Numbered from the stretch's first letter, positions 6,104-60,035 are shown. The stretch: 64,000 nucleotides of DNA from Myxococcota bacterium (GCA_045599245.1 JAZRVP010000136.1:34555-98554), one strand, 5' to 3'. Translations and numbers: made by a program. The notes: a model not told the origin generated them from the letters alone.

Positions 6104-6156
6104 GCTATGCACGTGCCGTGCATACGCTGCCGGGCTCAGGCTTTCGGCTTGACGCC
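6104..6156. repeat. Two bulged-hairpin (REP-like) copies after lon
   Basis: GCTATGCAC-GTGCC-GTGCATA(C)GC and GGCTCAGGC-TTTCG-GCTTGA(C)GCC. Confidence 0.65.
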
Positions 6157-6223
6157 GATACGCCTTCGCAATCTTTTTTGCCCTCCCTCCTCCCATCCAC
6201 CTCTGTCCATTCTGACATCGGAT

Positions 6224-7084
6224 ATGCAACACAAAATCATTATTCTTGGCGAGTTGCTCTGGGACTGCTTTGAACAATCAAAAAAGGCCGCAGGCGCACC
6301 GTTTAATTTCGCAAAACATGCACTCTCTTGCGGCTTATCCCCTCTTCTCATCTCTGCCGTCGGCCTCGACGAAGACGGTACCGAACTCATCAATGCAGTC
6401 CAAAATTCTTCTGTTTGTTCAAACATTTCCCGCGTCCAGTCCCCCACTGGAAAAGCAATCGTTCACACCACAAACTGCCACAATTCATTTGAACTCATCG
6501 AACCTGCCGCCTGGGATGAAATCGCCCTTCCCCCCGAAACACTCGATATCATTCCTTCAGCCTCTGCTCTCTACTTTGGAACTCTCGCGCAGCGCGCTCA
6601 CAAAACTCGCCAAACCATTCAAAACTGCGCCAAACTGTTCCAAAATCGAATGCGAATCTGTGACATCAATTTGAGACCGCCATTCATCACAAACGACATC
6701 ATTTTATGGTCCCTGGCTCATTGCAATATTCTAAAAATGAGCGATGAAGAAACCCCTCAAATCGCACAACTCTTAAGTTTATCGCCAAATTCCACTCCAG
6801 ATCACGTCGTTCAGACATGTTTTAATCAATTTCCCATCGACATCATCGTTGAAACAAGAGGCCCGAACGGCGCAGCCGCCTGGCACCGAAACGGAACCTC
6901 TGCAACAACCCAGGCACAATCCATCACCAATTGCTCGACTGTCGGCGCCGGAGATGCCTTTATTGCCTCATTTTCTGCTCAAATTTTACAACAATCGCCC
7001 TTACAAACCGCCCTCGAAACCGCTGTCATCTATGCCTCTTCCGTCATTGCCAACCCCTCTTACACCTCTCCCCACCCAGTTTAG
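6224..7084 (+). CDS. PfkB-family carbohydrate kinase (fructokinase-like, about 286 aa)
   Basis: IILGELLWD, AGAPFNFA, DINLR, LKMSDEE, ETRGPNGA and TVGAGDAF PfkB signatures; start MQHKII at 6224. Confidence 0.9.
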   Translation: MQHKIIILGELLWDCFEQSKKAAGAPFNFAKHALSCGLSPLLISAVGLDEDGTELINAVQNSSVCSNISRVQSPTGKAIVHTTNCHNSFELIEPAAWDEIALPPETLDIIPSASALYFGTLAQRAHKTRQTIQNCAKLFQNRMRICDINLRPPFITNDIILWSLAHCNILKMSDEETPQIAQLLSLSPNSTPDHVVQTCFNQFPIDIIVETRGPNGAAAWHRNGTSATTQAQSITNCSTVGAGDAFIASFSAQILQQSPLQTALETAVIYASSVIANPSYTSPHPV

Positions 7085-7672
7085 GGCCCCCCAGTCCCAC
7101 CGACTCGCCAACCCGTTTTTTTGTGAGTCCAGCGCACAAAATAAACTCCTCCACCGGCGGCTTTTTCTCTTTTGAAAAAGTCACCCGGACCAGAAGGTGT
7201 TTACTCTCAATACGCTTTGGTGCCGTAAACGAACCATACTCAATGTGCTTCGTCAAACAATTGAATCTGTTCCGTTACGTTATGTGAGGCTTCTTTCGCA
7301 TCCTGACGCAATTTCAATGCACTCCTGCACTTGAGATAATGCAAAAAACACATCCATTGCACCGATAGCTACTCGTCAGCAAAATCATGGACAGGGCGGT
7401 GCTCGTACTGACATCTCATTGGCTCCCCAAAAGCAGAGCCCCATTGCCCTGCATATTATATGATGCCTTCGAGATCCGTTTGTTACAGATTTATTTTTCT
7501 GGGTTCCCAAAATGGCAAATAAAAGCCTGAATAATGCACATCACGAGCAGAATAACGTGTATAAGATCATTGATTTATGCAGCTATGAACATGCCATCAC
7601 AGCCCGCACTCGACATCTGTGCTTGAGCATATTCATGCATACACAGCCCTTTGTCACAATTCAGCCAGGGGT

Positions 7673-57800: not shown

Positions 57801-59772
57801 TTCCCTCATACGTTGCACCGCCAAGCCATTCCTTGCGAATTTCGGTATCGCTGTTCCAGGCAAGATATTCTTCGGCAAGATAAGATTCTCTCATCATACC
57901 CAGCCATTTGTTCATGGCATCGGCTTTTTCATCGTCGGTGGTCAGTGTATTGGACAGATATTTGCGCGCAATCAGATCCGCACCACACAAAAGTTCCGGA
58001 CGATCATCGCAAATTCCGCAGGTGGAGTCTGCACATTTCGTCGCAAAATCATTGAAGTTGTTGATACCGCCGCAAACATCGACAAGCGTTTCTCCCGAAG
58101 ACGGAGCGGACTGGGTCAGAACGGTTTCGAGTATCTTCGACAGTCTGGTTTTGTCATTCAATATGTAGCTGACACCCGTGTTCACACAGAACCAGCGATC
58201 ATCTTCATCCAACGCATTATATTCATCCAACGTGATACTGGAGCCGCTTCCCGTCGAACTCAACTGGCATTTTGTAAGTTTGTCATCGCACGCCGCTTTC
58301 TCATCCTCATCCTCGATATCCTTACACATTGAAGGATCAATGGCACCAATCAACTTTTTAATATCATTAAACGTACAGACATCTTTTGGTGCTTCATCGA
58401 TACCTCGAATGACTTCACTCGCCACCGCATGATCTGAAGATGCCAATTCCGCATCCATACCATACGAACGTTTCACCGAAATGGTTCCGGTCATATCGGT
58501 CGAATGATAAACCGGCCTCACGTTGTCACCTTCGATTTCATTTTCGCGGTAAAGACCGATCATGTGATCCGTGATAATGCCATCCAGCGCATGCGATGAG
58601 GCATCATAATTATTGAATTCAATTCTCATGCTTCGGCTCATCTTTTCATCAGCCGAAACCAGCTTGCTGCCTTTAAATACGAAATCATTCGACGCAAACT
58701 TAGCCACAAAGCTCGGTTTTTTCGAGGTTGTCACTGCAGCGTCTTCTTTCGCCAGTTCGACCTTTACCCAGGTGTTACGGTCATTTCCACTTTCATCCAC
58801 CGTCGATTCCGGCGAGAAAATATCGCTCGGGCTTACCGGCATGTAGAGCGTCATTTTTTCAATGGCGTTGAAATCGGCAGGCTTCGCGGGAACGGTCTCG
58901 ATGTACATACGAATGGGAAGCGGCGTTCCTGAAAGAATATCAGGGGTCACATTTCCTTCATAGTAACCGGAGGCATCCTGCGGATCGATCATGAGAATGG
59001 GGAAATCGCCGGCATTCGATACGATTTCAACCATTTCAGAATTCAGGCTGTCATTCAATCCGTCACGAAGTCTCGCTCTCTTGGCGCGAATCTTCGACGC
59101 ATCGATATCAAACTTATACGTATAGCCGCCGTTACCTTCTACGGCTTTTGCCGATTTCAGAACGGGAATTTCGCTGTCATTCGTTTTGACTGCGTAGAAA
59201 ACCTTTCCCAGTGATTTTTCCGCGACAAACTGTGTCGTCTGTTTGCTGTCGGAACCAAGCGTCGCAACCTGCGGCACGGCTTCCATGATGTTGATCGAAT
59301 TGACAACGCCATTTTTGCCATCATCCTGACCGATAACGCTGCGTACAACGTTTGTCTCTTTTTTGGCCATAAACTCGAGATCGAGAAGAAGCTTTGATTT
59401 CTCTTCGGCCTTCATATCGGAGGCAGAAGCGATCTTGTCATTGACGCTCTGAACTTCTTTCAAATATGCTTCAGTCACACAGCGACCGCGTGTCGCCTGG
59501 CAATAATAGCCGTCTTCACATCCAAGCTTATTTCCATCGCACTGCATAACGCACTGATTCTGGAAGCAGAATGATCCCGTCTGACAGTCCGTATCGAGCA
59601 TACAGCCTCGATTGGAATTCATGCTCATCTCGTACAGAGCCTGACCTGTGGTTGTTATTTCTTCTTGCGGATCCGGATCCACAACAGGCTTTTTATCTTT
59701 GGAATCATCGCTACAGGCACCTGCCACGAAAGCAAGCATCGCTATTACTGACATAAAACGCAGTTTATTCAT
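54853..59772 (-). CDS. Giant coiled-coil lipoprotein with a TcA-like C-terminus (about 1639 aa)
   Basis: GAGAGG RBS; MNKLRFMSVIAMLAFVAGAC; short Cys-rich domain; beta-rich region; long heptad helices around an Ala/Gly hydrophobic stretch; C-terminal KISEIRVRF...FPLMATYTIVFD...INWDNVADIEVQFKYT. Confidence 0.7.
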   Translation of the reverse strand: MNKLRFMSVIAMLAFVAGACSDDSKDKKPVVDPDPQEEITTTGQALYEMSMNSNRGCMLDTDCQTGSFCFQNQCVMQCDGNKLGCEDGYYCQATRGRCVTEAYLKEVQSVNDKIASASDMKAEEKSKLLLDLEFMAKKETNVVRSVIGQDDGKNGVVNSINIMEAVPQVATLGSDSKQTTQFVAEKSLGKVFYAVKTNDSEIPVLKSAKAVEGNGGYTYKFDIDASKIRAKRARLRDGLNDSLNSEMVEIVSNAGDFPILMIDPQDASGYYEGNVTPDILSGTPLPIRMYIETVPAKPADFNAIEKMTLYMPVSPSDIFSPESTVDESGNDRNTWVKVELAKEDAAVTTSKKPSFVAKFASNDFVFKGSKLVSADEKMSRSMRIEFNNYDASSHALDGIITDHMIGLYRENEIEGDNVRPVYHSTDMTGTISVKRSYGMDAELASSDHAVASEVIRGIDEAPKDVCTFNDIKKLIGAIDPSMCKDIEDEDEKAACDDKLTKCQLSSTGSGSSITLDEYNALDEDDRWFCVNTGVSYILNDKTRLSKILETVLTQSAPSSGETLVDVCGGINNFNDFATKCADSTCGICDDRPELLCGADLIARKYLSNTLTTDDEKADAMNKWLGMMRESYLAEEYLAWNSDTEIRKEWLGGATYEGTFAASILNDFNSDLLARYNKDVLGRQYDVMTKQFTQTTLEMLSQTVVGSANADSVSELTSNRNAILSEMAQTWQSVAEAMALSARRHDVLTQNDSARLKAARELRPLLFDLYFAGLIESKINLNADQGSLNGTYGANLNDTISKIASLDQSFESLVFMRDGEIFRNTSLTEEKITDALKKLDQNATNSVDTAKTELDKILKTLDDEEISKLQNNDNYLTALEALRAQLVSLCGYPADCTTPEDRQTCQIYTAPYFCGFSVNSQTKAKVDLTQEGGSDNMIKIQQVVNYSNCSEKLQPGSAEEVMAACGGNLALESNPVSMDGTVNSKAGSAILDYRQAQQEYETAMAEYEVLRQKVANNDNTANAYEAAINSWHEQRTKMIDSISTNLADINKYMEGIAGFSSAEAEEQLKSLKNAYEAEKDNFSKWKGAAGSNLAFQEAYTLAQAANNISGIYLDNSIQDAEQEIQHQYLEGILNNTNSIGMGAGAANLTASISAKAASAALGTAKTVLQTVEAGAAAAAGITEKATAFSIELYDREKSKNAADSAAKLQETLNNLKVTVSTSKGKVEGQKEDFEAKIKELEGAIQTLKLSNENQEKYERDLQELQQMRNDFANAALDLVTLAYNVKIKELARARALVNYLTIAQEAELVADQYNNKLKRYKALNDVTFSASKFFQHASDLELAEKYIEFARNDLNDYLTAIEYMTVRPFVEIRRSIYTARGTNDLKVLKEQLNDLSDNCGSGKGSDNTVTVSLRNRIGVGDADIDGVSAADRFHTILKAGALPVSAMTRYSVDGNAGDMLKKGEFYSGSFNLNSKFANLATSCNAKISEIRVRFVSKEGKRIRESGDAKPSVSLFYGGQSQLISCHSNIEAIANSIGSRTSFGKVSTFMTDPFSDGLTAGMYNVEEGSNYKLSDNTDFSEVTVYNGLANFPLMATYTIVFDPNAGENAGINWDNVADIEVQFKYTTGSNGQDASKCKYDI

Positions 59773-59926
59773 TATCCACCTCTCTAAAGACGGTTCATAA
59801 AAGCCCTTACAGTAGGGCAAAGTTATACCAACCTGTGACTTACGTTTATTACATACTTTATTTTTACTTTTCAAGTCATCCGTTTTTTTATTCACTTTTT
59901 TATCCATTTTTTTCTATTTGAATGTG

Positions 59927-60035
59927 GCCTGACTATGCCGATGGCATACGTCAGGCATTGCTTTGCTATGGGGCATGCCCCATACGCAAAGCACGTTTTG
60001 TGCATTTGACCTGACGATGCCCGGCATACGTCAGG
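59927..60035. repeat. Three bulged-hairpin copies between P3 and the TcA-like gene
   Basis: GCCTGACTATGCC-GAT-GGCATA(C)GTCAGGC; TGCTTTGCTATGGGGC-AT-GCCCCATA(C)GCAAAGCA; degenerate copy at 60010-60035. Confidence 0.8.

Follow-up and report, generated by a model that had tools for sequence, protein, structure and literature searches.

A family of hairpins defined by an invariant bulged cytosine in a Myxococcota bacterium and its relatives

Introduction

Interspersed bacterial repeats are usually recognised by sequence. Among the systems closest to the one described here are the repetitive extragenic palindromes (REPs). Those of group 2 contain a bulge with a contacted C and are read by an HUH enzyme (PMC8266576), while the CGTC REPs form a palindromic superfamily with a terminal unpaired tag, fixed 8-9 bp stems, loops of 4-5 nt, mostly head-to-head dimers, intragenic copies and no dedicated transposase known (Di Nocera et al. 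2013, PMC3733652). Here we describe a family of bulged hairpins in a 64,000-nt stretch of a Myxococcota bacterium (GCA_045599245.1 JAZRVP010000136.1:34555-98554; hereafter the window, with positions counted from its first letter) that is visible only as a fold plus a nine-base core. A first-pass annotation, made from the sequence of the window alone, had listed 21 such hairpins and ascribed to them variable, compensating stems around a single unpaired nucleotide. We analysed these copies together with loci of relatives, labelled L001, L002 and so on. As far as sequence allows us to judge, the family would appear to be REP-like in its working, and new in its definition by a fold and a bulged core, in its head-to-tail layout and in its stability at orthologous sites.

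A bulged-C core defines the hairpin family

All 21 positions listed earlier hold hairpins, and about 21-25 copies within the 64 kb form hairpins with an invariant bulged-C module (Table 1). Nineteen of the 21 clear copies are intergenic, and such an abundance of short extragenic palindromes is a feature shared with REPs. The pattern CTATN{7,24}ATACG has 29 matches in the window against 2.9 +/- 1.6 (maximum 7) in 100 dinucleotide shuffles. We then compared all 1024 cores that can be built to this plan, in which the first of four base pairs is followed on the 3' arm by a single unpaired base: in the window CTAT/ATA-C-G gave 14 strict matches, where the mean was 0.06 and the runner-up had 4, and neither the unbulged CTAT/ATAG nor the three other bulge bases gave any. 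Over ~300 kb of window and relatives, CTAT/C accounts for 39 of 77 hairpins of this geometry, and nearly all the remainder are A-run/T-run slippage in ordinary terminators. The near-universal core described in the first-pass annotation largely stands: it is exact (CTAT...ATA-C-G) in 17-18 of the 21 listed copies, the three variants being the copy listed at 6132 and now placed at 6138 (CTTT), that at 60010 (CGAT, with a collapsed inner stem) and that at 54814-54841(-) (CTGC...GCA-C-G), which is the sole genuine core variant in the ~300 kb.

ViennaRNA placed a one-nucleotide bulge at the expected position in every cluster folded, with z-scores of -5.5 to -10. With filters off, a covariance model of 56 copies recovered 19 window copies at E <= 0.01, all intergenic except two, and 95 copies were counted in ~470 kb of window and relatives, including loci fetched via a lineage-specific protein. 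Rfam searches of the window and 108 kb of relatives returned tRNA matches only, with no other family reaching its gathering score, and we found no description in the literature of the motif or of repeats in this lineage. A scan of viral contigs with a TGGC subclass pattern gave 19 matches, each alone on its contig with no second family member; these look like chance.

Stems vary between copies and stay paired

Read from outside to inside, the module consists of a G-C pair (81% of copies), an invariant C-G pair, an unpaired C on the 3' arm, and then T-A, A-T and T-A pairs, all three invariant. Below it lies a lower stem of 1-8 bp, free in sequence, and above it an upper stem of 0-12 bp with a loop of any sequence, the smallest members having no upper stem at all (CTAT-ttc-ATACG). 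The pair just inside the TAT/ATA core is G-C, C-G or T-A and never A-T (0/65). Outside the stem, conservation is absent for 30 nt on either side (flank information <= 0.2 bit per position), the flanks contain no GTAG or CGTC tag, and only the core-adjacent pair is biased, toward G-C. The family is therefore distinct from GTAG-REPs, as had been proposed.

Across the 56 copies, 92% of stem cells are paired against 65% in shuffles, part of this pairing being forced by how copies were picked. The covariation score is 0.60, compared with 0.14 in shuffles (0/500 reach 0.60) and 0.08-0.10 with slid partners; both sides vary in 9 of the 13 pairs, and the four core pairs never vary. A test that escapes this bias, in which copies were picked on one stem and scored on the other, gave 58-96% Watson-Crick pairs against 27-59%. 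G.U pairs occupy 4 of 724 cells in the covariation of the 56 copies, and 0-8% per position in the one-stem selection test. Strand asymmetry of mismatches (G.T versus A.C) was also considered and not used, there being too few cases. The core comparison, the one-stem selection test and the covariation of the 56 copies thus uphold the initial description of a family defined by structure, in which the bulged C is invariant and the stems compensate. Since in duplex DNA 3-40 nt separate the half-motifs and only the fold joins them, the folded single strand is what is constrained.

The hairpins might have no function, as a by-product of palindrome-generating mutation (template switching) or of chance. 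Template switching can alter both arms at once, as in two paired changes among the strains of L001: a variant of 383-416 has gained G at 396 with C at 403, exactly one base pair, and a variant of 7569-7604 has lost A at 7582 with T at 7590, again exactly one base pair. However, template switching would remove the bulge, and the core comparison found neither unbulged cores nor other bulge bases; in addition, the enrichment over shuffles is about ten-fold and the core is identical over genomes of 45-57% G+C. The core comparison, shuffles and covariation effectively refute this explanation.

Placement, orientation and likeness to terminators

Seven of the 11 window clusters lie in sense orientation 9-110 nt behind stops, namely those of lon, glgX, the S41 peptidase gene, secA, dapF and the genes ending at 41372 and 54853, and in the two convergent spacers of the window each copy adjoins its own gene. 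The labels 'VWA adhesin' and 'TcA-like', used earlier for genes with copies behind them, have no Pfam support. The remaining four clusters comprise those at 51228 and 59927, which were originally noted as oppositely oriented and are antisense between co-directional genes, the divergent-spacer cluster at 18098/18131 and the intragenic, antisense cluster at 20655/20732. Over all loci, co-directional spacers hold 10 sense and 10 antisense clusters (3:4 in the four sequences with reliable gene calls), convergent spacers hold 8 clusters nearer their own gene and 5 nearer the other gene, divergent spacers hold 3, and 6 clusters are intragenic and antisense; some 'intragenic sense' cases flagged in relatives by open reading frame (ORF) heuristics are tentative calls. 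The first-pass rule that transcripts always read the sense form directly after a stop thus describes the seven window clusters and both convergent spacers but is not general, and the strand bias relative to stop codons that it anticipated is missing from co-directional spacers.

A T-run (at least 5 T within 14 nt, in motif orientation) follows 8 of 58 clusters (for example 41423, 54736 and 18131), an A-run precedes 1, and 50 are without a T-run. A terminator-like U-tract, where present, therefore accompanies the sense form, and this asymmetry together with the convergent-spacer layout indicates that many sense copies are also transcript 3' hairpins or terminators. Like intrinsic (Rho-independent) terminators, the copies are G+C-rich hairpins soon after stops, a minority with a T-run, and they form tandem stacks of a kind also found among terminators of this genome. 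Unlike terminators, they have an invariant bulged core, mostly lack a T-run and are not confined to the sense 3' ends of transcription units, half of the co-directional copies being antisense and others lying within genes or in divergent spacers. Unbulged terminators also occur in the window, at 413-434(-), 8077-8101(+), 28484-28562(-), 42853-42882(-) and 60069-60100(-).

These observations bear directly on the possibility that the hairpin is an RNA element of 3' untranslated regions (UTRs), a terminator or 3'-end protector whose bulged core would bind a lineage-specific RNA-binding factor acting in termination, processing or stability. Copies that are antisense, within genes or in divergent spacers would on this view be remnants without activity or parts of unannotated transcripts. 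The sense clusters behind stops, the adjoining of own genes in convergent spacers and the 8:1 excess of T-runs in motif orientation all fit such an element, as does the use of stacked tandem hairpins here to build unbulged terminators (three at 28484-28562(-)). The 10:10 ratio in co-directional spacers does not, nor do the 50 clusters that lack a T-run, the absence of G.U enrichment, or the antisense in-frame copies, which stay paired in a protein family only 41-57% identical; moreover, RNA from an antisense copy shows another motif, with a bulged G on the 5' arm. We consider a purely RNA-level element a credible but, on balance, unlikely explanation.

Two further ideas were dropped. A selenocysteine insertion (SECIS) or recoding signal is unlikely, the stops preceding the hairpins being a mix of TAA, TGA and TAG, and DUF6261, whose gene follows the divergent-spacer cluster, was abandoned as a candidate partner since it does not recur as a neighbour in relatives.

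Copies within a coding sequence stay paired

The ORF that contains the intragenic cluster, 20400-21152(+), is a real gene. It encodes a conserved, lineage-specific protein of ~250 aa with 43 homologues and no Pfam domain, overlaps the stop of the upstream pentapeptide-repeat gene in ATGA, and always lies between that gene and a giant TPR lipoprotein gene, whose true start is near 21238 (MKLKKLAILSALLLTSC). Synteny is largely kept along this cluster of pentapeptide gene, linker-protein gene, TPR gene and M23 gene.

Both hairpins are antisense and fall in a disordered linker of the product, which carries the linker peptides R[MI]xxx[HND]S and GAG[DA]xxP. Homologues at 41-57% identity have R[MI]xxx[HND]S in the corresponding places, and within these peptides a methionine is matched by a histidine (ATG/CAT) and an isoleucine by an asparagine or an aspartate (ATT/AAT, ATC/GAT), a protein readout of nucleotide covariation at the core-adjacent pair. 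In the DNA of six linker-protein genes the hairpins are intact with differing stems; in some other homologues the copies have decayed or been lost. As the hairpins remain intact at a divergence where neutral sequence would be scrambled, pairing is maintained within coding sequence. Like Rickettsia palindromic elements (RPEs) and other intragenic palindromes, these copies sit in frame in coding genes and are translated as a tolerant segment. Unlike RPEs, which are sequence families of 100-150 bp, they are ~30-nt units in which only the core is conserved and pairing is kept through compensatory codon changes.

A G4/C5 mini-hairpin lies at 20762-20777 beside the 20732 copy. The CCCCC flanks of this copy were considered as target-site duplications and rejected, since they belong to a separate mini-hairpin family, GGGGGA-NNNN-TCCCCC (see below).

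Age, arrangement and stability of the copies

The closest relatives of the S41 peptidase of the window are 48-66% identical and occur only in uncultured metagenome-assembled genomes (MAGs) that bear the label Myxococcota, Myxococcales or Proteobacteria and come from ruminant and other guts; the species representatives searched do not include the window's own species. These relatives (45-57% G+C) have the identical core with unrelated stems, often right behind the S41 gene. The same core with different stems, often at orthologous sites, indicates that the core is of long standing. Copy density differs among sublineages, from 0 to 7 per 10 kb, and no copies were found in one Bradymonadales MAG, in five high-G+C relatives or in the sister lineage L024, which has ordinary terminators. 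L023, L012 and L004 are rich in hairpins, as is the window, and the lineages of L024 and L013 are poor in them.

Neighbouring copies no more than 40 nt apart are head-to-tail in 35 of 35 pairs, with gaps mostly of 2-7 nt and no inverted dimers, whether head-to-head or tail-to-tail; 28 of the 58 clusters are head-to-tail doublets. Arrays expand by tandem duplication and then decay, as seen in L002, L008, L023 and the window pair 59927/60010. Distant pairs within one genome share 3.14 of 9 stem bases and pairs across genomes 3.20, and at least 7 of 9 are shared by 1.9% and 2.0%, respectively; with distant same-genome copies no more alike than cross-genome ones, there is no master-copy population of the REPIN type. 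Among strains of L001, represented by contigs of four ruminant gut metagenomes, no hairpin has been gained or lost. The long subclass represented in the window at 10449 (CTAT-GTGCTC-[stem-loop]-TGCGCGC-ATACG) recurs in L006 at 13231 and in L029 at 19056, a recurrence that points to vertical inheritance. Strain contigs of L012 are dominated by heptamer microsatellites, and hairpins there are unreadable. In L023, 19939-20317 holds an array of two tandem duplicated doublets (four bulged hairpins), with a serine recombinase (resolvase) gene on one side and a tRNA gene on the other; a tRNA precedes glgX both there and in the window, so the tRNA-glgX arrangement is conserved.

Comparison with mobile palindromes and recombination sites

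Like REP/BIME elements (of Enterobacteria; group 2, RAYT TnpA-REP), the copies are short, dense extragenic palindromes that lie mostly behind genes in either orientation, may form 3'-UTR hairpins and have an in-stem irregularity, which in the REPs includes a specifically read C. Unlike them, the copies lack an unpaired GTAG tag, conserve 9-11 nt where REPs conserve the whole stem, form no within-genome families and are never inverted relative to their neighbours, and the sampled sequence contains no RAYT. Three of the five REP/REPIN features tested (terminal tag, within-genome sequence families, inverted dimers) were thus not found. With the CGTC REPs the family shares palindromes without a known dedicated transposase and the presence of intragenic copies, but its tag is internal, as the bulge, and its stems and loops vary freely in length.

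Subterminal hairpins of IS200/IS605 elements and PATEs also have a single extrahelical base on one arm and end hairpins in direct orientation, and those of IS200/IS605 are read on single-stranded DNA; the hairpin of IS608 has an extrahelical T. The present family matches them in having one extrahelical base per hairpin (the bulged C) and, in 28 of the 58 clusters, two hairpins in direct orientation. It differs in that no conserved cleavage or guide tetranucleotides occur beside the hairpin (none within 30 nt), no tnpA or tnpB is nearby, there are no recent copies, and the copies are stable at orthologous sites. No Y1 transposase was detected in 527 kb of window and relatives, in which the genomes are only partly covered, and in the same 527 kb a tblastn search with E. 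coli RayT gave a best E of 0.35, RAYTs being single-copy and whole genomes not being covered.

Could the hairpins then be a non-autonomous mobile element of the REP/RAYT or IS200/IS605 (PATE-like) kind, with a Y1-HUH enzyme reading the bulged hairpin on single-stranded DNA and the doublet as a minimal left and right end? Hairpins read by HUH enzymes do have in-stem irregularities (PMC8266576), other palindromic repeats have in-frame intragenic copies as well (PMC3733652), IS200/IS605 ends are in direct orientation as the doublets are here, tandem duplication enlarges arrays, and density differs among sublineages. Set against this are flanks without a conserved tag or cleavage motif, the lack of sequence families within a genome, 35 head-to-tail pairs with no inverted dimer, the absence of presence/absence polymorphism among strains and persistence at orthologous sites over deep divergence; the missing RayT-like match is a weak test that points the same way. 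We regard a mobile element as improbable.

Integron attC sites invite a further comparison, in which the hairpins would be folded single-stranded sites for a tyrosine recombinase, marking gene ends as cassette boundaries. Both are defined by structure with variable sequence, have extrahelical bases and often lie at the 3' ends of genes. Yet the attC core sites R''/R' with L boxes (RYYYAAC/GTTRRRY) are absent here, only the CTAT and ATACG columns being invariant; there is a single bulge, and copies are 20-45 nt long as opposed to 57-141 nt. Nor is there a cassette array beside an intI: the neighbours are housekeeping genes on both strands (lon, pfkB, glgX, secA, dapF and others) with no integrase gene nearby, the hairpins occur in both orientations, and synteny is largely kept at the pentapeptide/linker-protein/TPR/M23 cluster. 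An attC-like role is extremely improbable.

Discussion

We tentatively favour a reading in which the hairpin is a docking site maintained by the host, and a dedicated, putative protein reads its folded single strand, probably as DNA. That the nine-base core never varies, and that its unpaired base is always C, suggests one specific reader protein. The random orientation in co-directional spacers, the persistence of antisense intragenic copies and, more weakly, the lack of G.U enrichment argue against a purely RNA-level role and favour reading of DNA; the low G.U content also lends weak support to selection for complementarity on both strands. The lineage-wide core, the persistence at orthologous sites and the pairing kept in a coding region would further imply that such a reader has a role at gene boundaries at the level of the host. 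We propose a model in which the element is a lineage-specific, structure-defined palindrome whose single strand would fold into a hairpin, and in which the invariant bulged-C module would be the docking site for one dedicated protein. This putative protein would read the hairpin on DNA, at moments when a strand is transiently unpaired, rather than on mRNA alone. Copies would pass vertically at gene boundaries, mostly as head-to-tail doublets, and would be maintained by compensatory change, and a sense copy that lies behind a gene and is followed by a T-run may act in addition as an intrinsic terminator or 3'-end hairpin.

Several points weigh against the docking-site reading. No candidate binding protein was identified, and cruciform extrusion is unfavourable for palindromes this short that contain a bulge. 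Intrinsic terminators, too, are generally poor in G.U pairs. The T-run asymmetry and the convergent-spacer layout suit an RNA role equally well or better. Finally, the gene calls of most relatives come from ORF heuristics, and many loci are orthologous, so the counts of orientation and placement are not independent.

Taken further, a docking site of this kind could amount to 'genome punctuation', in which the lineage's own putative protein would recognise the bulged-C hairpin wherever nucleic acid at a gene boundary is transiently single-stranded, with hundreds to more than 1000 sites kept by selection on the fold and the 9-nt core, independently of the REP/RAYT, attC/IntI and uptake-sequence systems. 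We offer this broader form as speculation that is, on balance, unlikely to hold. A direct analogy with DNA-uptake sequences was tried and fails, the spacing of the half-motifs being variable in duplex DNA.

Since nothing but its fold and nine-base core gives this family away, others like it may be going unnoticed in other genomes. The reader, once found, would be a new protein with high specificity for single-stranded hairpins, and would shed light on an old question, the purpose of REP-like elements. In practice, the motif also serves to pick out contigs of the lineage from gut and rumen metagenomes.

Window copies and neighbouring sequences

Table 1 Bulged hairpins of the window, with core, covariance-model result and setting.
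Position	Strand	Core	Covariance model	Setting
6104..6127	+	exact	27.4 bits	18 nt past lon stop; outer stem reaches 6095-6133 with a second bulge
6138..6165	+	degenerate, CTTT...ATACG	22.9 bits	listed earlier as 6132; second of head-to-tail doublet; T6 run 7 nt on
10419..10440	+	exact	match	110 nt past glgX stop
10449..10496	+	long variant, CTAT-GTGCTC-[stem-loop]-TGCGCGC-ATACA		not listed earlier
10737..10788	-	possible long variant; CTAT...ATACG closes a 39-nt imperfect inner hairpin	missed	not listed earlier
10815..10847	-	exact	match	second of doublet behind S41 peptidase gene; TTTT next
10852..10879	-	exact	match	14 nt past S41 stop
18098..18127	+	exact	match	divergent spacer, Ser/Thr kinase gene (-) and DUF6261 gene (+)
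18131..18159	+	exact	match	second of doublet; T-rich run follows
20655..20686	-	exact	match	inside gene 20400-21152(+), antisense; in frame as SRMGAAHSE
20687..20722	+	degenerate, CTAT...AT-CG		between the two intragenic hairpins; not listed earlier
20732..20759	-	exact	match	in gene 20400-21152(+); read as TRMGTAHSV; CCCCC motifs flank
33421..33454	+	exact	match	9 nt past secA stop; one G.T pair in outer stem
33459..33493	+	exact	match	listed earlier as 33461; second of doublet
33564..33599	-	subclass CTATTTC...TCAATACG	14.9 bits	not listed earlier
33605..33634	-	exact	match	15 nt past dapF stop
41423..41456	+	exact	match	51 nt past stop of gene 37452-41372; T7 run next, terminator-like
51228..51258	+	exact	match	antisense, between two minus-strand genes; A.C mismatch in outer stem
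51261..51295	+	exact	match	second of antisense doublet
54736..54774	-	exact	match	last in stack behind gene 54853-59907(-); T7 run next
54779..54807	-	exact	match	mid-stack
54814..54841	-	CTGC...GCA-C-G; bulged C, C-G and T-A pairs retained, two core pairs changed in a compensating way		
59927..59956	+	exact	match	antisense between two minus-strand genes; downstream of canonical terminator 60069-60100(-)
59959..59993	+	exact	match	second of doublet; paralogue of 51261
60010..60040	+	CGAT, inner stem collapsed		decayed tandem duplicate of 59927

The minus strand from 42897 to 63997 encodes five very large genes (1009-1684 aa), two with DUF7107 cysteine-rich repeats and one with a MopE-like metal-binding motif. 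Between large genes of this run lie the paralogous doublets at 51228 and 59927. Another two hairpins, CCAAAGGGCTCAGCCCTTTGG and TCCGGGGCAGAGCCCCGGA, both perfect and unbulged, lie at 54673-54716 in a 500-nt spacer, immediately past the T-run of the 54736 stack. The three stacked unbulged terminators at 28484-28562(-) lie behind a minus-strand SLT transglycosylase gene, 28567-29304; with terminators placed behind this overlapping gene, the plus-strand ORF 28381-29100 is probably spurious.

A second hairpin repeat, unrelated to the bulged family, is present in three copies (7749-7794, 10676-10721 and 29416-29461), each in a long intergenic region. Its sequence is conserved as (G)TCGAGGCGTTGTG[A/C]ACAACGCCTCGAC, with a perfect stem of 11-15 bp. 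The mini-hairpin family GGGGGA-NNNN-TCCCCC occurs in L006 (5128, 8370, 9827, 13277), L019 (2292, 2633), L023 (464, 3293), L010 (4644), L029 (19038) and the window (20762-20777). Its stand-alone copies are in sense orientation 23-31 nt past stops, and in composite copies the mini-hairpin lies 2-6 nt 5' of a bulged hairpin in 9 of 9 cases, with a CCCCCT motif following.

Tandem arrays of 7-nt units lie beside hairpins in intergenic sequence, in the window at 10530-10600 (TAGTGAT/TAGTGGG/TTAGGAT) and in relatives (GCATAAT/GCGGAAT/ATTGATA) at L012 3560-3620 and 11725-11930 and at L001 ~290-350; in metagenome contigs their depth is 20-150 times that of the surroundings. Positions 1-330 of L001 reach a depth of 30-60 times the surroundings in DNA contigs, show many rearranged joints and are the only part of L001 well covered in RNA runs; they are probably a multi-copy or highly expressed element.

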